The translations under genes were made by a program, and so were the position numbers. From Planctomycetaceae bacterium (GTDB taxonomy: Bacteria; Planctomycetota; Planctomycetia; Planctomycetales; Planctomycetaceae), in NCBI GenBank assembly GCA_016779365.1, contig JADHNX010000001.1, positions 1 to 56,163 on the forward strand: a stretch of DNA of 56,163 bases, read 5' to 3'. The notes under the pieces were generated by a model. It was not told the DNA's origin, made no database searches, and saw only the letters and a list, made by a program, of their open reading frames with translations. This document shows positions 7,161 through 56,163 of the stretch, piece after piece (within the stretch, counting starts at the first letter, position 1; each line of letters begins with the position of its first letter).

Positions 7161-7173
7161 CCCGCCGAGGATT

Positions 7174-7251
7174 CGTTTAACGGCAAGCCGCAGGCGACGG
7201 TGGTTCGTCGAGACACTTCGGACACGGTCGCCTGCGGCTTGCCGTTAAACG
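7174..7251. repeat. REP-like palindromic element, family A, copy 2 (intergenic)
   Basis: Left arm cgtttaacggcaagccgcaggcgacgg (7174-7200) pairs with right arm cggtcgcctgcggcttgccgttaaacg (7225-7251). The arms are 27 nt with 1 mismatch. Confidence 0.85.
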
Positions 7252-7292
7252 AGTCGATTCTAAGCCACATAGCACCCAACTGAATCCCTGAA

Positions 7293-10200
7293 ATGAAGAC
7301 ACTCCTGAAATCGCTGCTTCTGTTTGTTTTGTGCTGTGCATCCGCATCCGCCGTCGAAAAGACCGATCTCTTTGAAGCGGGCAACGAGGGTTACGCGCTC
7401 TACCGGATTCCCGGGATCGTGGTAACCACACAGGGAACGGTTCTGGCTTACTGTGAGGCGCGAAAGAGTGACCGTGGCGATTGGGGACCGATCGACGTGC
7501 TGATGCGGCGGAGCACGGATGGCGGGAAGACATGGGGGCCGCGACAGAAGATCGTCCACGTCGAAGGCGATCTGCCAATCAATCCGCTGGCGGCCGCGCA
7601 GAATCTGGACAAGCCCGGCGACAACACGGTCAACAATCCGGTCGCAATCGTCGACCACGAGACCGGGGCAGTGCATTTTCTGTACTGTCTGGAATACATG
7701 CGCTGTTTCTCCATGCGCAGTGATGACGACGGCGAGACGTGGACTGAGCCGATTGAGATCACAAAGACGTTCGAGGACTTTCGTTCCGATTACGACTGGA
7801 AGGTGCTGGCGACCGGGCCGTCTCACGCGATCCAGCTCACTCACGGACCGAAGCGAGGGCGGCTGGTTGTGCCGGTCTGGCTTTCTTTAGGAACGGGCGG
7901 CCACGCGCATCGACCGTCGGTGACGGCGACGATCTACAGTGACGATCACGGGAAAACATGGCAACGCGGCGACATCGCTGTACCGGACACGCCGGAGTTC
8001 ATTTATCCGAACGAAACCGTGGTCGTGCAGCTTTCCGATGGGCGAGTGATGCTGAATACGCGCAGCGAATCGAAGGCGCACCGCCGGCTGGTCACGATCA
8101 GTCCCGACGGAGCCACGGTTTGGTCCCAGCCGCGCTTCGACGAGCAACTGCTGGAGCCGATCTGCATGGCGGGCATCGTTCGCGTGCGGATGCCAAACGG
8201 TGACAAACCCGGTGTGCTCGCGTTTTCCAATCCGCACAATCTGAGCCGCGCCGACGGTAAAGAGACGCCCGGCAAGAGTCGCGATCGCAAAAACGTGACG
8301 ATCAAGCTGAGCGATGACGAAGGCCGGACGTGGTCCGCCAGCCGCACGCTCGAGCCCGGTTTCAGCGGCTACAGCGATCTGGCATCGCTGCCCGACGGCA
8401 CGATTCTGTGCTTCTACGAACGCGGCAGCATCGACGGCAAGAATCACTACCGCACCGGTCGGTTGACGGTCGCTCGCCTGACCGAGGACTGGGTGCGTGA
8501 TGGAATCGAAACGGATGTCTGCGTCTACGGCGGTACGTCAGGTGGGGTTGTCGCGGCCGTGCAGGCGGCGCGGATGGGAAAGCGCGTGGTGTTGGTAGAG
8601 CCGGGTCGGCATCTCGGCGGGATGACTTCCGGTGGGCTGAGCGCGGTGGACATCGGCGACCCGCGCAGCGTCGGCGGGATCGCCCGCGAGTATTTCTCGC
8701 GGCTGGTCGCCAGCTACGCCAAGACGTTGAACTGGGACCAGCCGTTCAACAGCAAGGGAGGTCCGGCGACCGGCGGGGCGTATTCGATCGAGCCGCATGT
8801 CGCGGAGCGCGTCTTTGAAGAAATGGCTCGCGAAGCCGGAGTCGTCGTGCTGCGTGAAGCACGCCTCGCGTCGGTGAAGAAGGAGGGCACTCGCATCGCG
8901 GAACTGACGACCGACGATGGTCGCACGGTGCGGGCGAAGGTGTTTCTCGACACGACCTACGAAGGCGACCTGCTGGCAGTAGCCGGGGTCAGCTACACGG
9001 TGATGCGCGAGGGCAACGCCCAATATGGCGAGACCTACAACGGCATCCACTACGCCGAAAACTACAAGCCGCGCGTCAATCATCAGCAGCCGGGCCCCAA
9101 CGGACGCGTGCCGGGCGGTCAGGGCGTGTGGGATCGAGACTTTCCGCTCGATCCGTATGTCGTGAAGGGCGATCCAACCAGCGGGCTGCTGCCGCTGATC
9201 AGCGAAGGCGATCCCGGCAAACCGGGTGATCCGGCGCCGGGCGTGATGGCGTATTGTTTTCGCCTCTGCCTCAGCACAGCCGACGACCGTCTGCCCATCG
9301 AACCTCCGTCGGACTACGACCCGAAAGACTACGAGTTGGTCGCCCGCTTCATCGCCGCCTGTCAGGAGAACGGCGACGACATGGACCTGCGCTGGTTCAG
9401 CAAGCATGATCCCCTGCCCAACCAGAAATGGGATTTCAACACCGCGACGTTCGGCGGCAACCTGCCCGGTGCGAGTTGGGAGTGGCCGGAGGCGAGCTAT
9501 GATCGTCGCGCCGACATCGCGAAGGAGATCGAGAACTATCATCGCGGTTTGCTGCACTTCCTCGCCACCGACCCGCGCGTGCCAGAGAAGGTACGAACCG
9601 ACATGGCTCGATTCGGATTGCCACGCGACGAGTTCACCGACAACGGCGGTTGGCCGCATCAGATTTACGTACGCGAAGGCCGCCGCATGGTCAGCGATCT
9701 GGTCCTCACCGAACACCATACCTTCGGTCGCAAAATCGCACCCGACTCAATCGGCCTCGGTTCATACGGCACCGACATTCACGAGATCCGCCGCATCGTG
9801 AAGGACGGCGTCGTCATCCGCGAAGGCAAGGTCGCTGGCGGGCGCGGCGGGTTCGGCCCGTACCAGATCGGCTACGGAGCCATCGTTCCGAAGCAGTCCG
9901 AATGCGAGAATCTGTTCGCGACGTTCGCGCTGTCCGCGAGCCACTCGGCCTTCGCCAGTATTCGCATGGAGCCGGTCTTCATGGTGACGAGCCAGTCCGC
10001 GGCGACGGCGGCGTGCCTCGCGATTGACGACGAAGTTGCTGTTCAGGAAGTCGATTACGAAAAGCTGAAGACCCGCCTGTTGGCCGACGAACAGGTTTTG
10101 TCATGGCCACCCGCGGGCGCCGCCACGTCAGCAGTCGCGCCACGGACAATCATTCGCGCAGACAGCCTGCCGGGAATCGTTCTGGATGATGACGAGGCTG

Positions 10201-43900: not shown

Positions 43901-44871
43901 CGCAGCAGGTCGCCGACGTCGCCGCGTTTCTGGCGGTGCAGAAAACGGCCGTGTCAAAGCCGAACGTGGACCCCGACGCACGATTCTCTGTGAAGGAAAA
44001 GCCCGATCGGCTGATCATCTCGTTGTCCGAGCAGTCGATTGCCGAATTCGTTTTCTCCGATCCGAAGATCCTCCGGCCGTACTTCGCGCAGGTGCGGACC
44101 CCCAGCGGCCGCCAGGTGACACGCAATCATCCGCCCGTCGCGGGTGTCGACGGGACCGACCACGACACGATGCACCCCGGCATCTGGCTCGCGTTTGGCG
44201 ACGTCAGCGGACACGACTTCTGGCGAAACAAGGGCCGAATCGACCACCTCCGCTTCACCGAACCACCGACCACGAAAAACAACGTGCTGACCTTTGCGAC
44301 GCAGTCACGATTGCTACGTTCTGACGGCAGCGAACTGTGCCGCATGCGCAGCCGCTTCGAATTGTACGCGCGTCCGGTGGGTTGGCTACTGAGTTGGGAA
44401 GCGACCTTCCAATCCGACACGGGCGAGTTCTCCTTTGGCGATCAGGAAGAGATGGGATTCGGCGCGCGGGTCGCCACGCCATTGACCGAGAAAAATGGCG
44501 GGGTGATCACGAGTTCCACTGGCCGGCGATCGGCCGCATCCACCTGGGGACAGGTGGCCGCGTGGTGCGATTACTCGGGCAAGCTCGGAGAGCGCCCGGT
44601 TGGCATCACGTTGATCCCCGACGCAGACAACTTCCGCGCCAGCTGGTGGCACAACCGCGACTACGGTGTGTTCGTCGCCAATCCGTTCGGCCGCGCGGCA
44701 ATGAAACAGGGCGACAAGAGCACCGTCACCATCCCACGAGGCCAGCCATTCCGCATCCGCTTCACCGCAGTCATCCATGAAGGTCAAAACTTCGCCCCGG
44801 AAGCTGAACGTCGGGCGATTCAGGAAGCACGGGACCAATCCGAAGCCGGGACAAAGAAGGAGTCGCCATGA
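40933..44871 (+). CDS. Large mosaic protein: membrane-bound-dehydrogenase-type beta-propeller + HEAT repeats + beta-sandwich domain + Pirellula/Verrucomicrobium-type heme-binding (CxxCH) domain + C-terminal PmoA-like DUF6807
   Basis: Signal peptide. FEVTLFAREPLVRQPCSMVFDARGRLFVG...GLAWHGRDLWV. DDEPRVRMAAVQAVLR HEAT units. GCFKCHS (43582-43596) followed by LVQSIIEPSAVITEGF. Tail ...ILRPYFAQVRTPSGRQVTRNHP...DHDTMHPGIWLAFGDV. Confidence 0.75.
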   Translation: MKTNVILLVLLCFTSASVVADFSDKQADRDALPAVPAAFEVTLFAREPLVRQPCSMVFDARGRLFVGMGPQYRNPTPETPGDSVVMVLDTDHDGQADQTKVFATGFNAVQGLAWHGRDLWVANAPDLTVVRDLDGDDEADEYVRIYTDLGNLEHGLHGLTWAPDGKLYMSKGNSKGLTQPGRVAPKPFRDLWGVTAPPGTPDFPEPQVFRKQVYRHAYHDPADDWGMDGGVLRCDDGGGNLEIVSRGFRNPWDVALDDGFNWLGTDNDQTTGDRVFMPFDGAHFGWNHPWSSHWSAAPHPPTAPVSGPLFEGSGTGVVFGDSPQFPPEYRGVYFINDWLRKTTFVWRPHWDGALMRPRGGDWEPFIVGGKSLFRPTDIEFGPDGALWVLGWSSGYGAEWKDGQLTNEGRIFRITWKEAPPIKATGKGRSLKKCSVEELIGDFSSPLSVRRIDAQDELVRRGVSVRQMLIETLQSGRLTKMQETWTAWTLGRIAIDDTTIDQFFAQLSADGSKARASLNLRIQAVRILGERARRGASFAGLDDALRLALADDEPRVRMAAVQAVLRANRRNLYVELCSLLERESDATVYYAAWQALRRLLSEADLRSLLGLRSGGFQPPNSRAPAAGSHRYARVQRAALLALLETHSLSRQEVAAVLAKRTAPAVREIAELWLAKAGAGAAEPVVRGRPIDAPSVAAAVPSNDGVAVVGRLSTKSHHRYRIQPGGLRPGAAAYSDRNYRFSTMPDELVGLDIVQTANNDDGSQGDDWLSVDALLPVRVYVGNDMRQTPPKWLSEEFRRTEHIVAIDEGARFQLFVRDYSAGPVALGGNTNDGKSGGKGNYIVAVQPQPLQKQETSATVEQALALLETADPARGELLFRHVSGAGCFKCHSLDAARNVFGPNLGGVGLRANHRHLVQSIIEPSAVITEGFTMQTVLTDDGKTYSGVLLEESGLSVSLGMSTGERVDIPKSQIEERRTSRVSAMPSMANILSPQQVADVAAFLAVQKTAVSKPNVDPDARFSVKEKPDRLIISLSEQSIAEFVFSDPKILRPYFAQVRTPSGRQVTRNHPPVAGVDGTDHDTMHPGIWLAFGDVSGHDFWRNKGRIDHLRFTEPPTTKNNVLTFATQSRLLRSDGSELCRMRSRFELYARPVGWLLSWEATFQSDTGEFSFGDQEEMGFGARVATPLTEKNGGVITSSTGRRSAASTWGQVAAWCDYSGKLGERPVGITLIPDADNFRASWWHNRDYGVFVANPFGRAAMKQGDKSTVTIPRGQPFRIRFTAVIHEGQNFAPEAERRAIQEARDQSEAGTKKESP
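42763..42823. repeat. Perfect 24-bp inverted repeat with 13-nt spacer, embedded in frame in the HEAT region of the ORF
   Basis: cgtagcggtggcttccagccgccg (42763-42786) is the exact reverse complement of cggcggctggaagccaccgctacg (42800-42823). It encodes RSGGFQPPNSRAPAAGSHRYA. Confidence 0.8.
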
Positions 44872-47800
44872 AGCGGCATCTTACTTCGTTTACTCTGCTG
44901 CTACTCGCGTGGACGATAGCGTTCTGCGAGCGGGTCGTCGCGACTGAAGATTCGAAGTCACAACCAGCCGAGCGGTTCGTTCAGAGGGTCGCGCCGCTGT
45001 TGAAGGCGAAGTGTCTGTCGTGTCACGGGCCGGACAAGCAGGCAGGAGGGCTGCGGCTTGATTCTTTGCAATCTGCGCTCAAAGGCGGCGACTCAGGGCC
45101 GGCAATTATGCCGGGCGATGCCGCGAAGAGCCTGCTGGTGAAGGCCGTTCGGTTCGACGATCCTGATCTGCAGATGCCGCCCAAAGACCAACTGGCTGCC
45201 AAGGAGATCGAGGCGCTGACGTGGTGGATCAATGACGGAGCTGTCTGGCCTCGGCCGGTGCTGGTGTTGTTTGACGATGAAGAGCCGTTCCTGGCGGCGC
45301 TCACCAAAGGCGAGGCAAAGTCGCGGTTTGAGCGGCGCGATACGCATCGTGGTTCGCTGGCCGTGGCAGTTTCGCCGCGTGAAAAGTTCGACGAGCAGAT
45401 TGCCGATTGGAAGTTGCCGATTCGCGAAAAGCCCGGGCCGGCCGAATTTCGCTATTTGCGGTACGCGTGGAAGAAAACGGGTGGCGGAGGCGCCATGCTC
45501 GAAGTCGCTCGCGAAGGCAAATGGCCGCCAGCGAAAGCGACACCCGCGCCCGGTGGCCGCTATGTCGCCGGGCCAAATGAAACGGGCATGGATGCGATTG
45601 TGGTCGACGATGCCGCGCCCCAGGACTGGACGGTGGTGACCATCGACTTGTGGAAAGATCTGGGCGACTGCGAAGTGACCGGACTGTCGCTGATGGCCAC
45701 CGGTGGCGGCGAAACCCTGTTCGACGCGATGCTGCTTGGCAGTTCGATTGCTGATCTCGATGCATGGTCTCCTGGGCGAGGTGACCTGGCTTTTAAGCCC
45801 GCTCCTAAGATTGAGCCGGTCGGAACGGCGTTCGAGGATTCACGCAACCCCATCCGTAAATTGTTTCGTGGCGAACGATTGGATCTCTGGTCGCTGAAGC
45901 CGGTTGTCAGCACTTCCGTTCTCGAGACTCAGCGGGGTGATTCTGCGGAGCTGTCCTCCAAAATGATTGACCGTTTGATCGACAAACGACTTGCCGAAGC
46001 CGACATCACACCGGCCCCCGAAGCCGATCGCCGCACGCTGATTCGACGCCTGGCGTTCGATCTCACCGGCCTGCCTCCGAAACCGGACGAAGTGGCAACA
46101 TTCCTTGGCGACAAGTCGCCCGATGCGCTGGAAACGGTCGTCGACCGATTGCTGGCATCAGCTGCCTACGGCGAGCGTCAGGCAAGGTTGTGGCTCGACG
46201 TCGTTCGCTACGCCGACACCAATGGGTACGAACGAGACGAGTTCCGCCCGCGGATCTGGATGTATCGCGATTACGTCGTCCGTTCGTTCAACTCCGACAA
46301 GCCGTTCGACCAATTCATTCGCGAGCAGCTTGCTGGTGACGAGATCGTCAACGGACTGCCGCAGAATTCCGCCGAAGCCGATGCGCTCATTGCGACCGGC
46401 TACCTGCGGCTGGGACAGTGGGACAGCACGGCGTCGATCTTTCAGGAAGAAGATCGTCTCCGCGCCGAAATGATGGCTGACCTGACCAACACCACGGCGT
46501 CTGCGTTTCTCGGCCTGACGATGTCGTGCTGTCAGTGTCACGACCACAAGTATGATCCCTTATCGCAGGCCGACCATTACCGGCTGAGGGCGTTCTTTGC
46601 CGGAGTCACACCACAGGACGATCTGGTCGTTGAACTGCCGCAGCAGCGTCAGGCGAACGAACAGCACAACTCCGCGCTCGGCCAGCGGATCGAACAACTC
46701 AAGGCCGAACAGGCGAAGCTCGACAAGGAGCAGGAACCGGGCAAGACGCGAGCCGCGGAATTATCGAAGGAGATCTCGGCTCTCGAGGCGCAAAAGCGTC
46801 AGCCGCTGAGTGCGATGGGAGCGACCGACGCGGGCTCGTCGGCTCCGGTGACTCGCGTGTTGTACCAGGGAGTGTTTCGCGATCCGCGTGACGAAGTCGC
46901 GCCCGGCTTTCCGTCCGTGCTGTATCCAGGACCGGCAGAGATTCACGCGCCGACGGAGAGCACTACGGGACGACGGCTCGCTCTGGCCAACTGGATTACC
47001 TCATCCAGTAACCCGTGGCCGGCGCGCGTTATCGTGAACCGAGTTTGGCAGCAGCATTTTGGCACGGGGCTGGTGGCGACGCCCAATGACTTCGGAATGA
47101 CGGGAGCTCGACCAACCCATCCCGAATTGCTCGACTACCTGGCTGCGAGATTTGTCAGAGACGGCTGGTCGATCAAGCGGCTCCATCGAGCGATTGTCAT
47201 GACAAGGGCCTATCGCCGCGAGTCAGCACACGAGGCTGTAGCGGCAAAGATCGATCCGGACAACCGCCTGCTGTGGCGGCAGAACGTGCGACGACTGGAT
47301 GCTGAGACCCTGCGGGACAGCCTGCTGGCAGTGTCGGGGCTGCTCAAGAAGAACGACGGCGGCAAGCCGATATGGCCCGAGGTTCCCCGCGAACTGCTGC
47401 ACGCTCAGCCGGCGATTCTGGAAGCGATCGAGGGGAAAGACGATGGACGGCGTCAGGGCTGGTACACCGACCCCGTCGAAGCGACCGACGTTCGCAGCCT
47501 GTACCTCGTGCGGAAACGCTGTCTGCCGATCCCGTTTCTGCAGGCATTCGATTTACCGGACACGACCGTGTCGTGCGCCCGTCGTGATACGACCGTCGTG
47601 GCTCCACAGGCCTTGATGCTGCTGAACAGCCTGACCGCCGTGCGATATGCAGAGGCGTTCGCCGATCGAGTTTGGCAGGCTTGCAAACTGCCAGCCGGCG
47701 AATCGCAAGAGACGGATGAGTCGCCCCGAATCGTCGCGGCCGTTTTTCAGCTCGCCCTGGCCCGTGATCCCGAACCCGAAGAACGAACACTCGCTCAAGA

Positions 47801-47924
47801 CCTGCTGCTGCGTCACGGGGACAAGCACCGTGTCAATGCCTCGAAGTCCGAGGCCGAACGGCTCGCCCTGATCGACCTCTGCCGGGCAATGTTCAACCTG
47901 AATGAATTCATTTACATCGACTGA
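44868..47924 (+). CDS. PSCyt / DUF1549 / DUF1553 protein with an extra about 200-aa domain after the heme-c module
   Basis: The ATG overlaps the upstream stop (ATGA). [76 protein letters not shown]. Confidence 0.85.
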   Translation: [1018 protein letters not shown]

Positions 47925-47938
47925 TTGTCGAGGTCAGT

Positions 47939-49384
47939 ATGCTGAAACTTCCATCACGTCGAGATTTCTTCACTCGCTCCGCTGGCGGGTTTGCCAGTGT
48001 CGCTTTGGGTGCATTGCTCGCCGAGGAACTGCAAGCTTCACCCGAATCGAAAACTGCGATTAACCCGCTCGATCCGCTACGTGTGCGTTTGCCACACATC
48101 GCCCCTCGGGCCAAACAGGTGATCTTCCTCTTTCAATATGGAGGACCTTCAACATTCGACCTGCTGGATTACAAACCGGAGTTGATCAAACTCGACGGCC
48201 AACCCGTGCCGGAATCGTTCAAGCGGCACAACGACGAAGTTGGCGGAGTCTTCAATCACTGCAAAGACGAATTGATGGCCGGGCCGTGGAAGTGGGCTCA
48301 GCATGGTGAGTCCGGCCGCTGGTTCTCGGACCTGCTGCCGCATACGGCCCGCCACGCCGACGAACTTTGCGTGGTCCGTTCGATGTTCAGCGAGAGCTCC
48401 AACCACGCACCGGCAACGTATCTGATGAACACGGGAGCGATCCTCGGCGGCCGGCCGAGTCTTGGTTCGTGGGTGACGTACGGGCTGGGTTCGGCAAACC
48501 AGAATCTCCCCGGCTATGTGCTGCTGTACCAGGTCGCCGGGCTGGGCGGTTCGGCAAACTGGAGCAATGCCTTCCTGCCAGCGGCGTTTCAGGGGACTCA
48601 GTTCCGACACGAAGGCTCGCCCGTGTTGAACCTGTCCCCGCCGGAGCGATTGGCAGAAGTGCAGCGTTCGACGCTCGATTTCGCACAGGCACTGAATCGC
48701 CGGCACGCGGAGAAGCGGCCCGGAGTGCTCGATCTCGACGGCCGCATCGCTTCTTACGAACTTGCCTTTCGGATGCAGTCGGAAGCGCTCGAAATCGGCG
48801 AGCTGTCACAGGAAACTCAGGCGACTCAGGACGCATACGCAGTCCATGACAGCAACACGGCAAAAGCTAAATACGGACGCATGTGCCTGCTGGCACGGCG
48901 GCTGATCGAGAAAGGTGTCCGCTTCGTTCAAACATACAATTCCGTGGACAAGTTGGGTTGGGACGGCCACGACAACAACATTGACTATCATCGCCGCAAC
49001 GCCGCCCAGACGGACCAGCCGATTGCCGCGTTGCTTACCGATCTCAAACAGCGCGGCCTACTCGATACGACGCTGGTCATCTGGGCAGGCGAGTTTGGTC
49101 GCACACCGATGAAGCAGGGGGGCAGCGGCCGCAACCACAATCCCTACGGCTTCAACATCTGGATGGCTGGCGGCGGAGTAAACGCCGGAGCATCGATCGG
49201 AGCCACCGACGAGATCGGCCTCAGGGCGGCCCGGCAACCTCAGCCGATCAAGAACCTGCACGCAACCATCCTGACGGCGCTGGGACTCGCTCCCGACGAC
49301 CTGTTCTTCGAACATCAAGGCCGGCAGGAACGCCTCACCGGCGTCGCTCAAAGCTGGAAGCTGATTCCCAACGTGCTGGACTGA
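47939..49384 (+). CDS. DUF1501 (sulfatase-fold) protein
   Basis: RRDFF Tat-like N-terminus. FQYGGPSTFDLLDYKPE. AGEFGRTP...GRNHNPYGFNIWMAGGGVNAG..GATDEIG. Confidence 0.85.
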   Translation: MLKLPSRRDFFTRSAGGFASVALGALLAEELQASPESKTAINPLDPLRVRLPHIAPRAKQVIFLFQYGGPSTFDLLDYKPELIKLDGQPVPESFKRHNDEVGGVFNHCKDELMAGPWKWAQHGESGRWFSDLLPHTARHADELCVVRSMFSESSNHAPATYLMNTGAILGGRPSLGSWVTYGLGSANQNLPGYVLLYQVAGLGGSANWSNAFLPAAFQGTQFRHEGSPVLNLSPPERLAEVQRSTLDFAQALNRRHAEKRPGVLDLDGRIASYELAFRMQSEALEIGELSQETQATQDAYAVHDSNTAKAKYGRMCLLARRLIEKGVRFVQTYNSVDKLGWDGHDNNIDYHRRNAAQTDQPIAALLTDLKQRGLLDTTLVIWAGEFGRTPMKQGGSGRNHNPYGFNIWMAGGGVNAGASIGATDEIGLRAARQPQPIKNLHATILTALGLAPDDLFFEHQGRQERLTGVAQSWKLIPNVLD

Positions 49385-49601
49385 CCTTGAGTCACAAATT
49401 CCTGGGAAGATTGAATGTGGAATAGTTGTGGACTCAACTACGTGTATTTCAACTTTGACGCGAACTTGGTGTAAGGCCCTGTCGCCCAGTGGGTTATTGC
49501 GCCTGACGACGGAGCGGCTCGGAGGCGTTTTGGCAACTACGCCGGTGTGTCAGCCGCCCGAAGTGCCCAAAAGCCTCCTGATAGCTAAAAGAAAGCGACA
49601 G

Positions 49602-49629
49602 GTTGGGCCGCCCCGGTGGGCGGCCCAAC
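49602..49629 (-). terminator. Intrinsic terminator candidate closing the minus-strand operon
   Basis: The 11-12-bp GC-rich stem gttgggccgcc / ggcggcccaac has a short loop. On the minus strand it is followed by tgtcgctttcttttag (U-rich). Confidence 0.6.
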
Positions 49630-49654
49630 TGCCGAGCGTGCTGGCCAACGATGT

Positions 49655-49786
49655 TCAGCGCCGTCGTCGGCGGCGACCGCGGGAGCGGCCGACGTTGTAG
49701 CCTTTGCGGCTACCAATGCGTTTGCCCGATTTGTAACACCACCAGGCAATCGCGGCCAGCACGGCGAGTCCAAACAGACTTTCCAT
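49655..49786 (-). CDS. 43-aa predicted membrane peptide with poly-Arg tail (not in the ORF track)
   Basis: The ATG at 49786 is preceded by AGGGGA. Translation is MESLFGLAVLAAIAWWCYKSGKRIGSRKGYNVGRSRGRRRRRR, with one hydrophobic helix and a basic tail. It lies immediately upstream of the terminator. Confidence 0.45.
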   Translation of the reverse strand: MESLFGLAVLAAIAWWCYKSGKRIGSRKGYNVGRSRGRRRRRR

Positions 49787-49880
49787 GTGGTCCCCTATCT
49801 CTATTCATGTTCGTATCCGGCCATCATTCCTCGTCGGGAACAACGGTCAATCCAGGCATGGTATCCTCCTTGTCGATGAT

Positions 49881-50717
49881 TCAGCCCTGCCACTGGCGAC
49901 AATGGGTTTCGCGGAAGTCGCACATCGAGCACGTCCAACCGGGCCGATACACGAACCGATTGGACTGTAGATCATCGACGTAGGCGCGGATCACGGCGAA
50001 TAGCCGCCGAAAGTGTGCATCGCCGCGGGCGGGGTAACGGTGTGTTTCAACCTTCGGGGTCTTCGTCTTGATGAGGCTGCGGATTTGCAGTTCTTGTTCG
50101 GTCGCACCAAACACGTGCCGGAATGCGTAGGCGTAACAGGACAACTGAACTTCGTGCGAAATCTCCAGCGGTGCGCTCGATCGCGCTGCCGTCTTGAAAT
50201 CAACAATCGTCAGCCCGGCTTGCGATTCGAGAACAAGATCGACGAATCCAAACAACGCCACGCCCAAGTCCTCCCCGGTCTCCGGATCGACCAGCGGACA
50301 CTCCAGCGGCCTTTCGACGGCGATTGGGAAGCCTTCGTTGGCATCTCGTGTATCAAGATAGGCTTCGACCAATCCGATCGTTTGATGTTTCAGCACCGCT
50401 TCGTCGTTGAACGAAGCGAACTGCATATCTTCAGCAGCGACCGCTTCGTCCCAAGATCCGGAAATATGCTGCGCGACATCTGTGGCTGACAGATGGTCGC
50501 CGTCCTGTCGATGGCGATAGAAAAACTCCAAGCCATCGTGGACGCGCTTGCCAAGAAACAGGCTCGGCGATGTCGGCTCCTTGATGCCTTCCACGTAACG
50601 CAGCTTGAACTTTAACGGGCACGACAGCCAGGTGTTCAATCTGGTGGGCGAAACGTAATCGAGAAGTCCCGAACTGTCATCGCGCGCACGATCAGCACGG
50701 GTAATTGTTGCGATCAT
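49881..50717 (-). CDS. PD-(D/E)XK nuclease, RecB/Cas4-like with 4-Cys cluster
   Basis: The ATG at 50717 is preceded by GGAGAA. N-terminus YVSPTRLNTWLSCPLKFKLRYVEGI. GFVDLVLE...IVDFKT (D...D/ExK). QLSCYAY (QxxxY). C-terminal CSMCDFRETHC together with the N-terminal Cys gives a Cas4/AddB-type Fe-S signature. Confidence 0.8.
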   Translation of the reverse strand: MIATITRADRARDDSSGLLDYVSPTRLNTWLSCPLKFKLRYVEGIKEPTSPSLFLGKRVHDGLEFFYRHRQDGDHLSATDVAQHISGSWDEAVAAEDMQFASFNDEAVLKHQTIGLVEAYLDTRDANEGFPIAVERPLECPLVDPETGEDLGVALFGFVDLVLESQAGLTIVDFKTAARSSAPLEISHEVQLSCYAYAFRHVFGATEQELQIRSLIKTKTPKVETHRYPARGDAHFRRLFAVIRAYVDDLQSNRFVYRPGWTCSMCDFRETHCRQWQG

Positions 50718-50809
50718 ATTGTTCTCCAAATGAGAAACCCCGACAGCGCACTGGTTCGTAGCCATTGCGTTGACAGGGCTTTGTCGTGATAGGTTGTCGA
50801 GCTATCCAC

Positions 50810-51478
50810 CTAAGCGACCGTGCATTCGCCGGCCAGCAGATTGAGCGTGGTGTCGCCATCGACGGGAAGGCCACGCAACCAGCGGGTGAACTGGTGGACC
50901 ATCAGTCCGGCCGCGATACTGGCTGCGTAGATCGTGCTACGGGACGTGCAACTACCGGTCTGAGCATCTGCCGGGGCAAACAACGTGTTGGCGTAGCGGC
51001 CGAATGTGTCGGCATCGTTGGCAGCGAGGATACGAATGGTTTCGCCCAACATGCGGCCGTCCACCCAGAACCGGCAGTGGTTTGCCACAGATCGCCAGAT
51101 AGCAGCCCGCGCAGAGATTGAATCGACACAGCAAAACACCGCTTCCCCGATCTGCTGCTTTGCACGGTAGCGATCCTGAATCGTCGCAACGTGAATTGAA
51201 GCATCGAGACGACGAATGGCTGTAGCCGTTGCAAGCACTTTCGGCTGGCCTACATCGTTAGCCGTGTAGCCTTGGGTCGTGACGTTCGTCACATCCACTG
51301 TGTCAAAATCGACCAACTGAATGCGCGGAGCGCCAATGGCAGCGAGTTGCAACGCCACTTGACGACCAATGGCGCCGACGCCGATGACGGTGGTCGCGAC
51401 TTCGGCGAGGCGATCGATCGGTACAAGGTCCCGCTGTCGTGTGAATCGATCTTGCGGAGTGATCTCAGGTGCGTTCAT
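50810..51478 (-). CDS. ThiF/MoeB/HesA-type E1-like adenylating enzyme (minimal, 222 aa)
   Basis: [41 protein letters not shown] is a Rossmann/ATP motif. The ATG overlaps the JAB stop (ATGA). Confidence 0.85.
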
Positions 51479-52179
51479 AGTATCAGTTCCTCCGCTTCTT
51501 CTTCCTCCGCCGCATAGTCGAACCAGCTTTCATACCAGGCGTCGGTCGGTTCCTCGTCAAATGGCGAGGCAAGGACCGGCTCCAATGTCGAAGCCATGCC
51601 GCGTCTCAGTTGTTCGGCGTGTACGTTGGCCAGATACTCCTGCTCCCAGGTGTCGGGTTCAGTGGCAGAGAATGGGCGCGAGTAATCGACCCCGACGGGA
51701 ATTTCAACTTCAGCGCATGGCCCGACGTTGAAGCGCAGCCGAGCGTACGACTGGCCTTCGCAATCGAGAATGAACATCACAGCCCAGTCGGCGCGGCCGA
51801 AAACGCGCTCGAACGTCTCCTCGTCCGTCATACTCGGACGCGGGCAGTCTCCGGGATGCGTATGCACCCAGATCCGGGCGAATTGCTCGGGACGCCGCTC
51901 CGCATCTACTTGCCGGTCAAAGAAATCGGCGACCGACTCGTCGTCGAACGCAACATGCGCCCATGAGCACACTTGCTTGACGAGTTGAATGTCTTCGACG
52001 AACAGCAGGTCGTCGCTCGCCGCGATCCCGAAGCCGCCGACTTCCGTGTCTCCATAATCACGCAGGAACAGCAACTTGGCCCACGCGGTGGGGCTGAATC
52101 GGAGCGTCTGCGTCGTCGCGACTGTGGCTGCTTCCGTCACTTTCCGTTTCTTCTGCTTCTTCTTCAAGTGCTTGGTCAT
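51475..52179 (-). CDS. JAB/MPN (JAMM) metallopeptidase; start uncertain (ATG at 52179, 52206 or 52233)
   Basis: EVGGFG Glu motif and JAMM motif [15 protein letters not shown] (HxHx7Sx2D). Confidence 0.85.
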
Positions 52180-53113
52180 GGCAATCAGAACACCTTTCGT
52201 TGTCATTGAGGCAGCCCTGGCAGAGTTCGGCATCACAACGCGAGCAATGCTTCATGCAGCCGCTGCAATGATTGTCATCGCAGCCTTCGCAGCGCGTCGT
52301 GCATTCGTTGCAGAAGATGCCGTCGCAGCCGGGGCAGTTGTAGTAACATTCGCCGCACACCGTCGTCTCGCACTTTTCGCACGTCCACCGCTCGTCGTCG
52401 CAAACCGTGCTGCCGCAGTCGGCGCACTCCACGCCATGCCAATCCGATAGTGAAACGAACGGACTGCCCGAGTTGTACGTGCGCAGCAAGTTGGCGACGA
52501 TCAGGAAGAAATCGAGCAAGCAGCCCCGCTCCAGCGCTTTGCGAATCGGCTGATGGCCGTCGCCTTCACAAACCGCTTCGTCTTGCACGTGCGGATGCGT
52601 GACGCTTTCGTTCGCGGCGGCCGGTTTGGGATCGACCGCAATCACGCGGTAGTTGGACGGATGGCCTTCCAGCAAGTCGGTCCAGTCGAGGCGAATCTCG
52701 AAGGGGCCCAAGTAGACGCTATCCAGTTCAATGGCTTCCGTCGTGACCGACAGCGTGCGTTGCCTTAGATTGAAGGCGACATCTTCAAATTCATCGTGCA
52801 GCGCAACCAGGTCAGAATAGATGTCGCCCACCGTTGCAATGCGATCTTCCCTGCCCGAGGGTCGAAGCCCGTGGTCGAGTTCGGCAACCTCAAGGCGAAG
52901 TCGCTCGACAGCCAAACGCAGGTCGTGGTTCAGCCGATTGGTGGCCACGTTCCAGCCGCGCTGCGTAGCTCTCTGCAATTTGCGGTTCAGCGTTTCACAT
53001 CGTTGCCACGTTGCCGCTGGCAGCGCAACGCATTTGTCGCGTGTAGTTTTCGAGTGGAGCCGCTCATGGATCGCGATCGCCATCCGCATGAGCAACCGTT
53101 GTTGTCGCGTCAT
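52058..53113 (-). CDS. E2 (UBC)-like protein with helical N-terminus and a C-terminal 21-Cys poly-CxxC metal-binding domain plus acidic tail
   Basis: [14 protein letters not shown] (nt 52568-52597) resembles the HPN/HPH-x(6-7)-Cys active-site flap of E2 enzymes and is preceded by a beta-meander-like segment. Residues 230-312 carry ten CxxC pairs. The gene position between Ubl and JAB/E1 fits an E2. Confidence 0.65.
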
Positions 53114-53145
53114 AGTTCATTACTCCAGGTGGCCACCACCCGCGG

Positions 53146-53173
53146 CGCCACCGAGCGCTGAGGCTCGGTGGCG
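53146..53173 (-). promoter_or_regulatory. Intercistronic perfect 11-bp GC-rich hairpin between the Ubl and E2 genes (no U-run)
   Basis: cgccaccgagc (53146-53156) pairs with gctcggtggcg (53163-53173). The adjacent 10-bp palindrome ggtggccacc lies at 53129-53138. Confidence 0.6.
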
Positions 53174-53189
53174 CGCGGATGGCATGAGA

Positions 53190-53414
53190 TTACGAGTTCG
53201 CGCCCTCGATCTTCGTCGGCGTGATGGAGATGCGATCGCCTTCACACAAAACTTGATCTGCCGGGCACGGCTGACGATTAACGCGGATCAGATAGTGGCT
53301 CGGCTTGGTGGAGCCGATTTGACGCTCGAACAGTTGGGCGACTGTCGTGCCGTCGGCGACGTCCACGTAGTCAGCGAATCCGCCACCGTCGTTGTTGATG
53401 ACCAGAATCTTCAT
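53190..53414 (-). CDS. Ubiquitin-like beta-grasp protein (ThiS/MoaD-like), 74 aa
   Basis: The ATG is preceded by AAGGA. MKILVIN...[12 protein letters not shown]...YLIRVNRQP...[19 protein letters not shown] has the size and hydrophobic pattern of a beta-grasp fold and a Gly near the C-terminus. It lies directly upstream of E2-JAB-E1. Confidence 0.7.
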
Positions 53415-53463
53415 ATGTGTCCTTTCACGAGTTGTGTTGAATGGGAAATCGATATCGTTGACA

Positions 53464-53652
53464 TCAAGTCGGTTGCCGCACCTGCCGTCGTCGCTTTCGA
53501 CGTCGCGAGGCGGTTTTGACTTCGCGCCCTACTCGCTGTTGGCCACCGCGCAATTGCTTTAGCAGGTTCGAATCAACGTTGAGGGCAGCGGAATCATCTG
53601 TCGTGGCGGCAGCGCTAAGTTGATGTCGTTGCTCAAGCGACGACCGGTTCAT
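53464..53652 (-). CDS. 62-aa hypothetical basic protein
   Basis: The ATG at 53652 has GGAGG 7 nt upstream. It overlaps the end of the HTH gene by 20 nt. It has an Arg/Lys-rich tail and no recognisable motif. Confidence 0.35.
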
Positions 53653-53848
53653 AGCGAGGCCTCCGCGTTCCTGTTTCGTGACGCTGGGCCTCTAATTCGT
53701 CCCAGTCGATGACGTAGGGTCCGAGTTCGTCGGAATCAGGATCGAGACAGTCGCCGGGTTCGGCGAGCAGGAACCCGAGGCGTTTGATGGTGGAAACGGT
53801 TTCGCCCGTGGCGCGGGCGACGGCGCGGTCGAGATCGGCTTGTTTCAT
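53633..53848 (-). CDS. 71-aa protein with probable helix-turn-helix
   Basis: DLDRAVARATGETVSTIKRLGF fits an HTH pattern. GGAG lies upstream of the ATG. It is the first gene after the terminator. Confidence 0.45.
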   Translation of the reverse strand: MKQADLDRAVARATGETVSTIKRLGFLLAEPGDCLDPDSDELGPYVIDWDELEAQRHETGTRRPRYEPVVA

Positions 53849-53875
53849 GGAAAGTGCTCCTGTTTAGGATAGGGA

Positions 53876-53925
53876 AACAAAAAAGGCCCCGGCCGCGCAG
53901 ATCAAGTTGTCTGCACGGACGGGGC
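53876..53925 (-). terminator. Intrinsic terminator separating the AAA+ module from the Ubl operon
   Basis: On the minus strand gccccgtccg...cggccggggc forms a stem of 10 bp (1 mismatch) plus 4 inner bp. It is followed by ttttttgttt (plus-strand A-run at 53876-53884). Confidence 0.65.
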
Positions 53926-53956
53926 GAAACGGTTTACGTGTTGTCGTTGACGACGG

Positions 53957-54205
53957 TCAGTCGAGCGGTGGGAACAGCCAGTGCGTGTGCAACCACTCGG
54001 ACTCCGCGTTGAGGGCGTCGCTTCGGCGAGCAAATGGGCCGAGCCGTGGCCCGCCTACCGGCGCCAGATCAGCGAACCACCGACCGTCTTGATCGGGCTC
54101 AACGTGTGAACCACGAGAAATGGAAGCTCGCCCGATTTGGGCGAGGTCGATGGTTTCGGCGTAGATGCAGCGGATTGTGCCGTCGGGAGAGATCAGAAGT
54201 TGCAT
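53957..54205 (-). CDS. 82-aa hypothetical protein
   Basis: The ATG at 54205 is 10 nt after the upstream stop. MQLLISPDGTIRCIYAETIDLAQIG...WFADLAPVGGPRLGPF...AESEWL. The longer track ORF (to 54412) overlaps the previous gene. Confidence 0.5.
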   Translation of the reverse strand: MQLLISPDGTIRCIYAETIDLAQIGRASISRGSHVEPDQDGRWFADLAPVGGPRLGPFARRSDALNAESEWLHTHWLFPPLD

Positions 54206-54215
54206 GGCTGTATCT

Positions 54216-55160
54216 TCACTTGGGCGAACGAATGACACGTCGCCGCGGTCGATCGACGAGAAGTCCGTCCAGCACCGATTGGACGCCGGAAAGCTGCGTG
54301 GCAACTTGCTGCCGCAAACCTTCGTTGTCGCGCAGTTCCTGAGGTTGGACACCATCGACAATCTGACGACATTGCGAAACGAGTGAGTCCAGTTGATCGC
54401 ACGACCGCACATTCAGTGCGCGGAAACGATCGAAAAACTCACGCAAGTTTCCCACCGCCGTGTCGCGGAATATCTTGGGCTTGCCGTCTTCGTGGCCGCC
54501 CAACCGCTCGGTGAGATGCGACACAAGTTGCGACAACTCCTCGGTGAATGCCTGCTCGGCCATCTGCACGGCTTCATCAAAACGGGCCTGCACGCGGCGG
54601 CACTCTTGCTCGTACAATTCTGGGTTCAGCTGCTGCAAATACGATGGTGGTTCGACGCTGGGAAAATCCCAAGAGACATCGAACATCCCGGCGAGCGATG
54701 CTGGATAGTCGGCTTCGTTGTACAGACTGCCCAGCCGCTCTTGCGCAGCCGCTTTGAGCGCTGCATATCGCTCGTCGAGTCCGGCCACGGCTTCGTCGAG
54801 TTCATCCTTGAAGACGCGCATCTGATCCTGAAACGTCTCGAGCGCGTCCTGCCGCACCAGACGAATACCCGGCTCGGGATAGGGCAAACTGAGCGACGTC
54901 CAGTAGGCACGCGTGCGATTCCGAACGGACGTCACGGCCTTGAACCGCGGGTGCTTGGTATCAAGCAGCTTCTTGCCGGCGCTGAGAAACTCGCCTTCGG
55001 CTCCAAACGATTCGGCCGCCTGCGCCTTCTGCGCAGAGGAAAGTGTTTTCCGTGTGCCGAACCACGTGAAGCTGACGCGTGTGGCGCACATGGTGGCTCG
55101 CATCCGATTGGCGGGGCTGGTGCTGTGCGTGGGTGGTTGTGTCGTCGATGTTGCTGTCAT
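54216..55160 (-). CDS. 314-aa helical hypothetical protein (reminiscent of DUF3150-type mobile-element proteins; unverified)
   Basis: GGAGAG lies upstream of the ATG. The protein looks long-helical, and the block RVSFTWFGTRKTLSSAQKAQAAESFGA...LSAGKKLLDTKHPRFKAVTSVR is what I recall from DUF3150-like proteins. This rests on recollection only. Confidence 0.4.
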   Translation of the reverse strand: MTATSTTQPPTHSTSPANRMRATMCATRVSFTWFGTRKTLSSAQKAQAAESFGAEGEFLSAGKKLLDTKHPRFKAVTSVRNRTRAYWTSLSLPYPEPGIRLVRQDALETFQDQMRVFKDELDEAVAGLDERYAALKAAAQERLGSLYNEADYPASLAGMFDVSWDFPSVEPPSYLQQLNPELYEQECRRVQARFDEAVQMAEQAFTEELSQLVSHLTERLGGHEDGKPKIFRDTAVGNLREFFDRFRALNVRSCDQLDSLVSQCRQIVDGVQPQELRDNEGLRQQVATQLSGVQSVLDGLLVDRPRRRVIRSPK

Positions 55161-55187
55161 GGCCTCTCCGATAAGAATGATGTGTGG

Positions 55188-56163
55188 TTAGTTGACACTG
55201 GGATCGCGCGGAATCTTCCGCCGCGACTTGCCTGTTGAGCCGCTTGCGTTGGTGTAGATGCCTGACTTGTCTGCGGACAGGCAGCGGCCGCTGGCCCAGC
55301 TGCGCAGTTGATCGACTGACTCGGCTGCAGTGATCGCAACCGGCACGATGTTCTGGGCAGCCTGTACCAGCGGCACGTCGAGCAACGCCGCGAGGCGACA
55401 ACAAGCTCGAACTTCTGCTCCTGTCCAGTTCTGATCGTCGGGCAATCGCTGATCGCCTTCGATGCCGAACAGGTCGAGATACATTCGCCAGATAGCTTGC
55501 TTCTGTTCCTTGCCCGGAAGATCAAGGAAGAACAAACCGTCAAAGCGTTCCGCGCGACAGAACTCGGGTGGCAGTTTCGTAACATCGTTCGCCGTGCAAA
55601 CGACGAAGACATCCGACTCATGATCGTTGAGCCACGAGAGCAACGAACCGAACATCCGCGCCGAAACGCCGCTATCGGTTTGGCCGGAGCCGGCCACGCC
55701 GCTGAGTGCCTTTTCGACTTCATCGACGAAGAGCACGCCCGGTTGCATGGCATCGACGATGCGAAGCGCCCGTCGCGTGCGTTCCTCGGTTTGGCCAACA
55801 AGCGAACCCATCAAGGCGCCGACATCGAGCGTCAGCGTCGGCCTGCCAGTCTCATTGCCGAGCGCTTTGCAAAACGCGCTCTTTCCTGTGCCCGGCACGC
55901 CCAGTAGCAACACGCCTCGCGGCTTGAGTGCCCGTGTGCTGCCTTGGTGTGGTCGCATCGCGCGCAGGCAAAACGCCTTCAACGATTCGAGTCCACCGAG
56001 ATCGGCGAATGATTCGCTTCCGCAGTGCAATGAGAGCAGACCACTTTTGGTCAACGTCTGCGACTTGAGTTCCCAGATCGAAGTTGGTTCGACGCGTCCA
56101 TGCCGTACCAGCGACAGACTGAAAGCTCCTTCGGCTTCGTAACGCGTGAGTCCGCAAGCCGCG
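55188..56163 (-). CDS. Classical-clade AAA+ ATPase (Cdc48/FtsH-like module); N-terminus off-window
   Basis: Walker A GVPGTGKS. Walker B VLFVDEVEK. Sensor-1 VVCTAN. Arg-finger region RAERFD. LDLPGKEQKQAIW helix. My manual translation shows the frame stays open upstream of the TTG at 56054 to the window edge. Confidence 0.85.
   Translation of the reverse strand, partial: AACGLTRYEAEGAFSLSLVRHGRVEPTSIWELKSQTLTKSGLLSLHCGSESFADLGGLESLKAFCLRAMRPHQGSTRALKPRGVLLLGVPGTGKSAFCKALGNETGRPTLTLDVGALMGSLVGQTEERTRRALRIVDAMQPGVLFVDEVEKALSGVAGSGQTDSGVSARMFGSLLSWLNDHESDVFVVCTANDVTKLPPEFCRAERFDGLFFLDLPGKEQKQAIWRMYLDLFGIEGDQRLPDDQNWTGAEVRACCRLAALLDVPLVQAAQNIVPVAITAAESVDQLRSWASGRCLSADKSGIYTNASGSTGKSRRKIPRDPSVN

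Follow-up and report, generated by a model that had tools for sequence, protein, structure and literature searches.

The window analysed here is the whole stretch of 56,163 nucleotides (nt) from a Planctomycetaceae bacterium (contig JADHNX010000001.1), and this study concerns the block at its right end, where all genes from position 56163 down to about 49400 lie on the minus strand according to the open reading frame (ORF) listing of the window. The block encodes a ubiquitin-like protein (Ubl), an E2-like protein, a JAMM/JAB metallopeptidase and a ThiF/MoeB-type E1, with an AAA+ ATPase gene and several small genes upstream and a nuclease gene and a membrane peptide downstream. A first-pass annotation, made from the letters alone, had described it as a Bil-like antiphage or mobile-element operon that links the transfer of the Ubl to a nuclease as effector. 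All ORFs which that annotation named are present on the minus strand, and the order Ubl-E2-JAB-E1 (ORFs from 53414 to 50810) is kept in relatives; two conserved genes, encoding a DUF3150-like protein of 314 amino acids (aa) and a protein of 82 aa, were absent from it. Because the ORFs, except one of 62 aa, are kept as proteins in dozens of related loci, they are real genes and not chance ORFs. The base composition of the block (49.4-56.16 kb) showed no difference from the rest of the window. As set out below, the results point to the right part of an integrative element that carries a candidate Ubl conjugation pathway.

Ubl, E1, JAB peptidase and E2-like protein

The Ubl gene (53190..53414, minus strand) encodes a 74-aa beta-grasp precursor, recognised by its ThiS match, by AF2 modelling and by Foldseek. 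The Pfam ThiS match (4.7e-4) lies slightly under the threshold, and a profile search of PDB sequences with the Ubl alignment gave no significant natural match. An AF2 model computed from an alignment of database homologues reached a pLDDT of 89.9, and Foldseek against the PDB returned Caldiarchaeum ubiquitin first (2mqj, 6fj7; E 3e-4) at a probability of 1.0, followed by TtuB, MoaD, SUMO, SAMP1, ThiS and ISG15, all of them beta-grasp modifiers; the fold proposed in the first-pass annotation was thereby confirmed. Across 72 distinct homologues the C-terminus ...TPTKIEG-A (G71-A72) is almost invariant, and the Gly-Ala is followed by 0-20 non-conserved residues, mostly two; the tail of the window copy is ANS. 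The Ubl has 4,619 homologues and carries the annotation MoaD/ThiS in databases. The Ubl is much better conserved than the enzymes encoded beside it (at one related locus, L095, Ubl 70%, E2 36% and JAB 57% identity), and such strong conservation of its sequence fits a tag that is read by several partners. It recalls the extreme conservation of eukaryotic ubiquitin.

The E1 (50810..51478, minus strand; 222 aa) was identified by Pfam ThiF (3e-24) and consists of a single ThiF domain (residues 22-204). It has a GxGxxG loop and a crossover-loop cysteine, C177 (consensus G.CTsrST), which is kept in at least 90% of 55 homologues of similar length. Its nearest solved sequences are PaaA, MoeB, ThiF, UBA3, TcdA, MccB, UBA5 and BubCD (E<=1e-3). 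The ATG of the E1 overlaps the stop codon of the JAB gene as ATGA, as had been annotated before.

The JAB gene (51475..52179, minus strand; 234 aa from ATG 52179) was assigned by Prok-JAB and a conserved motif. Prok-JAB scored below threshold (1e-4), and Cap3 and JAB models gave 1e-3 to 6e-5; the sole solved-sequence match was a weak one to the Caldiarchaeum Rpn11 homologue (E 0.38). The full JAMM signature E...HTHPx6S-x2-D is kept in an alignment of 40 homologues, and the domain has a basic extension on its N-terminal side and an acidic tail on its C-terminal side. The catalytic motifs of JAB and E2 listed in the first-pass annotation are thus present, with their spacings corrected to HxH-x7-S-x2-D and HPH-x6-C. 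Gene callers start JAB at TTG 52074; upstream of this codon, in the same frame, every related locus has a Met, a Lys/Arg-rich stretch and a conserved strand, and the start is most likely ATG 52179. With this start, about 122 nt (52058-52179) are read in two frames, one for the acidic tail of the E2-like protein (...VGQVAVPA) and one for the JAB head, rich in Lys, and the first conserved JAB strand, and the overlap is kept in nearly all related loci. The overlap probably also explains why the E2 C-terminus, VGQVAVPA, looks conserved. A programmed frameshift fusing E2 and JAB was considered and dropped, as long alternative frames are expected at ~60% G+C; the conserved Met/Lys-rich start region ahead of the JAB domain also disfavours it.

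The E2-like gene (52058..53113, minus strand) sits between Ubl and JAB in all loci that have it. Its 351-aa product, recognised by an invariant motif, an AF2 model and Foldseek, comprises an N-terminal helical region (~1-83), a UBC-like core (~95-225), an array of CxxC pairs (230-311) and an acidic tail. In 42 sequences, 46-91% identical to the window protein, H173, P174, H175 and C182 are invariant; there is no invariant His after C182, and no conserved His at the position five residues downstream. In the AF2 model (pLDDT 79.9), residues 95-210 form a helix, a four-stranded meander, a loop with the Cys and two helices, which is the order of the UBC fold, and Foldseek against the PDB returned mostly E2 enzymes (Rad6, UbcH5, Cdc34, UBE2H, UBE2W, UFC1; target TM-score 0.4-0.55). 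Scans with Pfam, NCBIfam, PADLOC and PHROG gave no match, a profile search of PDB sequences with the E2-like alignment gave no significant natural match, and the best 150 hits of an exhaustive profile search were all full-length family members, with no bridge to a known E2 family. The UBC fold expected from the first reading is therefore supported by the E2-dominated Foldseek list and the HPH-x6-C motif, and falls short of statistical proof, as no E-value was significant. Judged by motif, model, Foldseek, an hhalign comparison given below and gene context, the 351-aa protein is very probably an E2.

The C-terminal third of the E2-like protein carries ten CxxC pairs at a regular 4/3-residue spacing (pLDDT ~90), which would suffice for about five predicted Zn sites; the Cys-rich extension described in the first-pass annotation is both real and conserved. 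Profile matches of residues 226-300 to PDB sequences (E<=10) were weak and included B-box, FYVE, ZZ and RING domains; PHD and LIM folds (Foldseek) and the cysteine-rich part of Siva were also matched weakly. Against BFVD, Foldseek with the E2-like model returned solely cysteine-rich repeat proteins. In one database protein (P0380, 783 aa), a GYF_2 domain and a trypsin-like peptidase are fused N-terminal of the E2-like module, either as a true fusion or as a gene-calling artefact.

A rival reading is that these genes form a ThiS/MoaD-ThiF-JAMM sulfur carrier resembling CysO/Mec+ or QbsE/QbsD. The product would then be a protein thiocarboxylate that feeds the pathway of a small molecule, and the 351-aa protein would have some function other than that of an E2. 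The MoaD/ThiS annotation and ThiS match of the Ubl, the kinship of the E1 with MoeB, ThiF and PaaA, and an E2 that no hidden Markov model (HMM) recognises are what such a system would show. However, no sulfurtransferase, rhodanese or biosynthetic gene was detected by Pfam in the scanned window and in the upstream half of the related locus L013, and by tblastn the related loci share the gene set; moreover, the 351-aa gene with its invariant motif and UBC-like model always lies between Ubl and JAB, the setting is a multi-copy mobile element, and a Ubl far more conserved than its partners is expected of a conjugated tag. We consider a sulfur carrier highly unlikely.

Copies of the block in other genomes

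The E2-like protein is encoded at at least 137 genome loci, a lower bound counted in species-representative genomes, and nearly all of these belong to Pirellulales or Planctomycetales (Planctomycetota); three contigs of 3-16 kb derive from metagenome-assembled genomes (MAGs) labelled Chloroflexota, Emcibacter and Thiobacillus. Sequence databases hold 574 word-indexed homologues, and the exhaustive profile search yielded 2,985 representative clusters (50% identity), at least 1,199 of them at E<=1e-30. Many genomes have 2-5 copies (one MAG five, another four and another three). Native carriers include Lignipirellula cremea, Rubinisphaera brasiliensis, Rubinisphaera italica, Bremerella volcania and Calycomorphotria hydatis. 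Several copies per genome are 75-97% identical, and intragenomic copies reach 95-97% identity over 8.2-12.7 kb, with sharp ends.

The gene order is fixed, as determined by tblastn with 20 query proteins at all loci: (p191, large serine recombinase, p68), p194, DUF1257, DUF2997, p223, AAA, (DUF6878), DUF3150-like, p82, 71-aa protein, Ubl, E2, JAB, E1, (transmembrane (TM) peptide). Presence was counted by tblastn in those non-identical loci whose flanks were long enough. Ubl (74/75), JAB (65/66) and E1 (55/58) co-occur with the E2-like gene almost obligately, followed by the 71-aa protein (53/68), p82 (52/66), the DUF3150-like protein (49/60), AAA (42/55), DUF2997 (41/54) and DUF1257 (40/52); the serine recombinase was found at 17/48 loci, the TM peptide at 15/53 and the nuclease at 2/52. 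Two of the genes upstream of AAA deserve mention. The conserved 223-aa protein p223 (L013 4698-5369) starts with ...ILLVVEGTNDIEFL..., which by eye resembles a Toprim/OLD-type motif of ATPase-partner nucleases, and has no Pfam match; the conserved 194-aa protein p194 (L013 3519-4103) has a lipoprotein-like signal (...AALMLTAIGC) and a coiled-coil-like remainder, and marks the left edge of the 8.2-kb unit common to the intragenomic copies L085 and L086.

A Resolvase+Recombinase protein of ~699 aa lies upstream in L012-L019 and in others of the 17 loci, including Lignipirellula cremea. Loci L013 and L018, which carry it, are close relatives of the window copy (protein identities mostly 84-97%). 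Blastn homology to both stops at ~49406, 22 nt from the stop codon of a DUF1501 gene; the downstream flank consists of sigma-70/FecR genes in L013 and L018 and of the DUF1501 gene in the window. Because homology to relatives inserted elsewhere runs to ~49406, the non-coding junction described in the first-pass annotation belongs to the element, as its non-coding right end (49406..49591, minus strand), and the view of an accessory mobile block abutting a host DUF1501 gene stands. On the host side (44868-49384), a gene for a 1018-aa protein with a CxxCH motif is followed by the one for the DUF1501 protein. An end recombinase, several copies and different insertion sites, as expected of a serine-recombinase integrative element, were all found in relatives. 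Since the copies are multiple, have sharp ends and differ in their flanks, and homology ends at ~49406, we regard the block as the right part of a mobile integrative element.

The operon is closed by an intrinsic terminator hairpin (49592..49630, minus strand), read from the sequence and partly found by a terminator scan, which consists of GTTGGGCCGCCC-ACCG-GGGCGGCCCAAC and a T-rich run; the operon-ending terminator of the first-pass annotation was thus borne out. Just past it, at 49577-49591 (minus strand), lies the conserved motif TTTTAGCTATCAGG, which in L085 and L086 occurs ~500 nt after E1. The exact 9-mer AGCTATCAG was found within 3 kb downstream of E1 at 14/50 loci, where ~0.01 per locus is expected by chance, and additionally ~9.5 kb upstream of E1 in two loci. 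The motif (TTTTAGCTATCAGG/AGCTATCAG) may be a site of recombination or regulation. At the end of the element, searches for tRNA genes and Rfam families came back negative.

Searches of phage and plasmid sequences gave few relatives. Tblastn of E2 against 50,697 phage genomes found nothing, tblastn of E2 against plasmids matched the Zn part alone, and tblastn of E1 against plasmids at 1e-5 found nothing. Among 2.9 million viral contigs there was one relative, IMGVR_UViG_3300025736_000113 (L096/L099), with a 37%-identical E2-JAB-E1 set followed by genes for an exonuclease, NinB, DnaB helicase, primase, NinG, endonuclease VII and a metallophosphoesterase; this contig ends 43 nt upstream of E2, before any position that a Ubl gene could take. 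The neighbourhood of phage replication and recombination genes is a hint that the cassette may once have belonged to a phage. The block could accordingly be a phage remnant or satellite whose Ubl/JAB pair acts in the assembly of the virion or of a replication complex, an idea to which the full-length match of the AAA protein to a phage family (see below) and the beta-grasp and JAB domains of lambda tail-assembly proteins (PMC1779556) would also lend themselves. Yet this contig is the single relative among the viral contigs and the 50,697 phage genomes contain none; Pfam detected no capsid, terminase or tail domain in the L013 genes upstream of AAA, and among the window genes PHROGs match just AAA, E1 and the exonuclease. 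We consider a phage origin of this kind quite unlikely.

Genes upstream and downstream of the Ubl operon

At the upstream end, the window holds the C-terminal 325 codons of an AAA+ ATPase of the classic clade (Ycf46-like; 55188..56163, minus strand). The frame is open to the window edge and continues past it; it covers at least 415 aa in the identical contig L007 and 500 aa in relatives. Pfam AAA matches at 1.2e-24, the best NCBIfam matches are CDC48, PAN, CdvC and FtsH, and the domain weakly resembles IetA/IteA. A full-length homologue of 500 aa matches phrog_8638, a phage family of unknown function, at 2e-87. The AAA gene is always preceded by DUF1257 and DUF2997 genes (Pfam, upstream genes of L013). 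The AAA+ neighbour pointed out in the first-pass annotation is thus real and conserved, lying upstream of E2 in 42 of 55 loci.

Next to it, the gene for the DUF3150-like protein p314 (314 aa; 54216..55160, minus strand) was assigned by the naming of homologues and by conservation. The window copy has no Pfam match; close homologues are named 'DUF3150 domain-containing protein' in UniRef, and a 31%-identical plasmid homologue matches PF11348 at 1e-8. Its partner p82 (82 aa; 53957..54205, minus strand), called in JGI contigs, is conserved and gave no Pfam or PDB match and no useful NCBIfam, PADLOC or PHROG result. The conserved 71-aa protein (53633..53848, minus strand), recognised by its conserved positions and its recurrence in the loci, has invariant TG...GF...P...DWD positions; it was labelled a helix-turn-helix protein in the first-pass annotation, a label that stays unconfirmed, as Pfam, NCBIfam, PHROG and PDB gave no match and a PADLOC scan no useful result. 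Overlapping this gene by 20 nt, the basic 62-aa ORF (53464..53652, minus strand) was found by tblastn at 12 loci, all close relatives, and Pfam, NCBIfam, PADLOC and PHROG scans gave no useful match; it is doubtful or lineage-specific.

The same upstream genes occur on a plasmid of Candidatus Manganitrophus (Nitrospirota; CP114559.1, L097). Positions 5822-10109 encode a RadC-like JAB, a hypothetical protein, AAA, DUF1257, DUF2997, DUF3150 and a p82 homologue (hhalign E 1e-29, 53% identity); RadC is directly upstream, and primase (toprim), helicase and ParB genes lie further out. No Ubl, E2 or E1 was found in this region. We refer to the AAA+ ATPase, DUF1257, DUF2997, DUF3150-like and p82 genes, which also occur alone on plasmids, as cassette A, and to the Ubl, E2, JAB and E1 genes as cassette B; because the plasmid carries cassette A without Ubl, E2 and E1, the two are separable modules joined by the element. 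The Ycf46-type AAA/DUF1257 (Ycf35)/DUF2997 group of cyanobacteria and plasmids has the same family composition as the genes upstream of the window block, and differs in that the genes are here additionally joined to the DUF3150-like/p82 genes and the Ubl cassette in an integrative element. On Burkholderiaceae plasmids (L098), a DUF3150-like gene stands between genes for ATP-binding and VWA proteins, beside a type IV secretion system.

Downstream of E1 follows a Cas4/RecB-type PD-(D/E)XK nuclease (49881..50765, minus strand; gene callers start at 50717), which matches PDDEXK_1 (1.5e-32), Cas4 (1.7e-8) and the phrog_69 exonuclease (5e-25) and has the Cas4-type four-cysteine motif (C49, C279, C282, C289). 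The first-pass annotation had proposed that Ubl transfer is coupled to this nuclease as effector, and had named a lack of synteny with E1/JAB in related genomes as evidence to the contrary. This check was run, and the nuclease follows E1 in just 2 of the 52 related loci with enough flank; the proposed coupling is not upheld. The nuclease is only an occasional accessory cargo of one small sub-lineage, outside the conserved core.

The last gene of the block encodes a 43-aa membrane peptide (49655..49786, minus strand), present as an ORF and called in JGI contigs, with one membrane helix and a GKRIGSRKGYNVGRSRGRRRRRR tail. The peptide, whose tail can also be given as GSRKGYNVGRSRGRRRR, is found again at the end of the element in genomes that are only distantly related. 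Tblastn placed the peptide downstream of E1 in 15/53 loci, and a scan of the 800 nt after E1 in all fetched loci found the same peptide in 10 (L012, L026, L028, L030, L038, L039, L045, L056, L057 and L066), including Lignipirellula cremea. The view that the peptide is part of the unit is borne out in part, as synteny extends to about a third of the loci. Judged by composition, it may be akin to small membrane toxins. Some loci (L026, L028 and L032) encode another small membrane-helix peptide, which ends in CTCxTGxCWC.

Relation to known systems and possible functions

With a probability of about 70%, the block is the right part (~6.8 kb of ~13-14 kb) of a Planctomycetota-specific, multi-copy integrative element whose core joins cassettes A and B. 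As part of the same reading, cassette B would be a complete cysteine-based Ubl conjugation pathway, consisting of Ubl, E1, an E2 with a zinc array and a trimming peptidase, and a new variant of the bacterial Ubl-conjugation operons; the nuclease and the membrane/poly-Arg peptide would be add-on cargo between E1 and the element end, and not wired effectors.

The nearest match in gene order is the Bil system, as BilABCD shares the order Ubl-E2-JAB-E1. In Bil Ubls, as many as ~9 variable residues come after a conserved Gly and are trimmed by the JAB (PMC10557695), and the pattern here, ...KIEG-A plus 0-20 variable residues, would likewise imply trimming by JAB; the invariant Cys of the E2-like protein and the conserved crossover Cys of the E1 are compatible with thioester chemistry. 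However, BilD has tandem inactive and active adenylation domains (IAD+AAD) with an inserted CYS domain that holds the catalytic cysteine (PMC10557695), whereas the E1 here is a single 222-aa adenylation domain, and in BilB the active-site Cys is followed by a conserved His (CEHH in the Type II form; PMC10557695), whereas the E2 here has an HPN-like HPH before its Cys, N-terminal helices and a five-zinc array. A further difference is the setting inside a multi-copy integrative element together with the AAA/DUF3150 cassette. No Bil-named match was obtained in PADLOC v2 or NCBIfam r20, libraries which may not contain Bil models, and no Bil chain was among the PDB sequence matches of E1 (E<=1e-3), the E2 profile (E<=10) or JAB (E<=1). 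The label 'Bil-like' of the first-pass annotation is thus apt for the gene order and the Gly-plus-variable-tail Ubl, and not for the E1 architecture and the E2 active-site motif.

A small stand-alone Ubl with E2-like, JAB and E1-like proteins as a fixed module of mobile elements is also known from PRTRC (Iyer-Aravind type 6d; PMC1779556; PMC3318190), and the wider setting of a DUF3150-type gene beside an ATPase on plasmids is shared as well. Among the NCBIfam PRTRC models (A-F, ThiF, ParB), PRTRC_ThiF alone gives a score, which at 36.7 bits stays below its cut-off of 144.75, and no ParB was found in this comparison. In type 6d E2s the conserved His follows the Cys and none precedes it (PMC1779556), the opposite of HPH before C182 without a conserved downstream His, and their hosts are Proteobacteria in contrast to the Planctomycetota here. 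No Bil, PRTRC or other defence model in PADLOC or NCBIfam matches E2 or Ubl. The system is not an already typed Bil or PRTRC system, since its E1 architecture and E2 motif differ and the E2 is matched by no curated model.

Nearest in spirit is the eukaryote-like operon of Caldiarchaeum subterraneum, with genes for Ub, E1, E2, a small RING protein and Rpn11 (PMC5654768). It shares a ubiquitin-fold precursor with a JAMM peptidase and an HPN-like E2 motif, the zinc fingers associated with the E2 here weakly resemble RING, PHD, B-box or LIM modules, and archaeal pro-ubiquitin shows the same tail pattern before JAMM trimming (PMC5654768). Unlike in that operon, the Ubl here ends in Gly-Ala and not in Gly-Gly, the E2 is not matched by UQ_con, the 222-aa E1 has no room for a catalytic-cysteine or ubiquitin-fold domain, and the zinc array is fused to the E2, with no recognisable C3HC4 or C3H2C3 RING. 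Type II CBASS (Cap2/Cap3) and Bub operons share with our operon a bacterial E1/E2/peptidase machinery on mobile or defence loci, with a JAB that trims or deconjugates; known bacterial Ubl operons are often on mobile elements (PMC11601596). Cap2, however, is an E2-E1 fusion that conjugates a cGAS-like enzyme, whereas E2 and E1 here are separate genes, and no nucleotidyltransferase (CD-NTase) was found by Pfam among the window genes. Bub systems use Ser/Tyr oxyesters and a DUF6527 protease (PMC11601596), in contrast to the Cys found here in E2 (invariant, n=42) and E1 (at least 90%, n=55), and no DUF6527 was found by Pfam among the window genes. A 2014 review (PMC4197634) mentions related operons from Planctomycetes, Actinobacteria and Acidobacteria and credits the discovery of those in Planctomycetes to Burroughs et al. 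2011; part of the present family may already be catalogued among these planctomycete operons. In the literature compared, outside Burroughs et al. 2011, no paper was found on the element, on the AAA/DUF3150 partner cassette or on the fusion of E2 and zinc array.

A possible course of the pathway can be proposed from analogous steps in Bil, Cap2/Cap3 and the archaeal ubiquitin system. The JAMM peptidase would trim the variable tail of the pro-Ubl at Gly71-Ala72, and the E1, presumably a homodimer like its ThiF and MoeB relatives, would adenylate the new C-terminus and probably hold the Ubl on its crossover-loop Cys177. From there, the Ubl would be transferred to Cys182 of the E2-like protein, whose N-terminal helices and five-zinc array could pick the target as a built-in E3 or substrate adaptor. 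The mark would be reversible by the same JAMM peptidase.

Several points weigh against the reading as an integrative element with a complete conjugation pathway. For the E2, the assignment draws on motif, gene context and a statistically insignificant fold match: the Foldseek E-values of the model to E2 enzymes are just 0.1-2, an hhalign comparison with UbcH5b places HPH...C on HPN...C at an E of 0.16, which is not significant, and no UQ_con or Prok-E2 Pfam family matches any of 42 diverse members. The E1 is far smaller than characterised conjugating E1s and looks like sulfur-carrier ThiF/MoeB, and the invariant Ala after the Gly leaves open whether G71 or A72 is the true C-terminal residue of the mature Ubl. 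All biochemical steps given above are proposals by analogy. As to mobility, the sharp ends of copies within one genome showed neither terminal direct or inverted repeats nor att sites, the recombinase was detected in just 17/48 loci, and for the window copy, whose left half lies beyond the window, mobility is deduced from its relatives. Finally, an unrelated PD-(D/E)XK exonuclease follows the distant, phage-like E2-JAB-E1 set of the IMG/VR contig L096, which leaves a little room for some link to DNA-end processing.

What the element does with the pathway can be seen in two ways. One possibility is a Bil-type antiphage system in a defence island, in which the Ubl would be put on phage proteins, as Bil puts it on the central tail fibre, with the AAA+ protein, the nuclease and the peptide as sensors or effectors. 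The BilABCD gene order and the Ubl Gly with its short variable tail speak in its favour, as do the weak matches of defence-system JAB models, the weak likeness of the AAA domain to IetA/IteA and the mobile-element setting of many bacterial Ubl operons (PMC11601596). On the other hand, a single-domain E1 and an E2 with HPH before its Cys do not agree with the tandem domains and CYS insertion of BilD and the Cys-then-His order of BilB; no defence HMM matches E2 or Ubl, and no CapH/CapP or CapW/BrxR type regulator was found by Pfam among the scanned window and L013 genes. Several copies per genome with 75-97% identity indicate a proliferating element, unlike a single-copy defence locus, and the proposed nuclease effector is missing from 50 of 52 relatives. 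Host defence in this form seems possible and rather doubtful.

The other possibility is that the cassette serves the life cycle of the element itself (establishment, counter-defence, or control of excision and maintenance), with the AAA+ protein handling tagged proteins and the peptide acting as a stabilising toxin. The cassette lies in the conserved core of a small element in which no genes for replication, transfer or capsids are recognisable; on plasmids, cassette A has RadC, ParB, helicase and primase genes beside it, and the E1/JAB/E2/Ubl cassettes of PRTRC are likewise fixtures of integrative and conjugative elements and plasmids. The AAA protein is of the classic-clade unfoldase type, and conservation extends to the TM peptide at the end of the element. 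However, there is no direct evidence for a target, the AAA and Ubl cassettes are separable, 13 of 55 loci have no AAA gene upstream, and it is a guess, drawn from composition, that the peptide is toxic. This remains a tentative proposal, and we give defence of host or element and service to the element itself about equal weight. A speculative and rather improbable extension is a 'ubiquitin plus segregase' machine, in which an E2 with its own zinc-finger E3 module would tag a protein that is then handled by the Cdc48/FtsH-type AAA+ protein. If true, this would be a prokaryotic mobile-element counterpart of ubiquitin-dependent protein extraction, with which a selfish element would remodel proteins of the host or of invaders.

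Bacterial Ubl conjugation has been shown experimentally only recently, for CBASS Cap2, Bil and Bub, each family having different chemistry or targets. The family described here is very large, as judged from its E2-like clusters, yet has no Pfam, NCBIfam or defence-database model for its E2. Combining the smallest type of E1 with an HPN-type E2 that carries a fused zinc array, it could offer a compact model for E2 and E3 functions in one protein. The cassette appears to belong to the core equipment of a proliferating integrative element and not to a single-copy defence locus. This leads one to ask how protein tagging benefits a selfish element, and cultured carriers (Lignipirellula cremea, Rubinisphaera brasiliensis and others) make this question testable.

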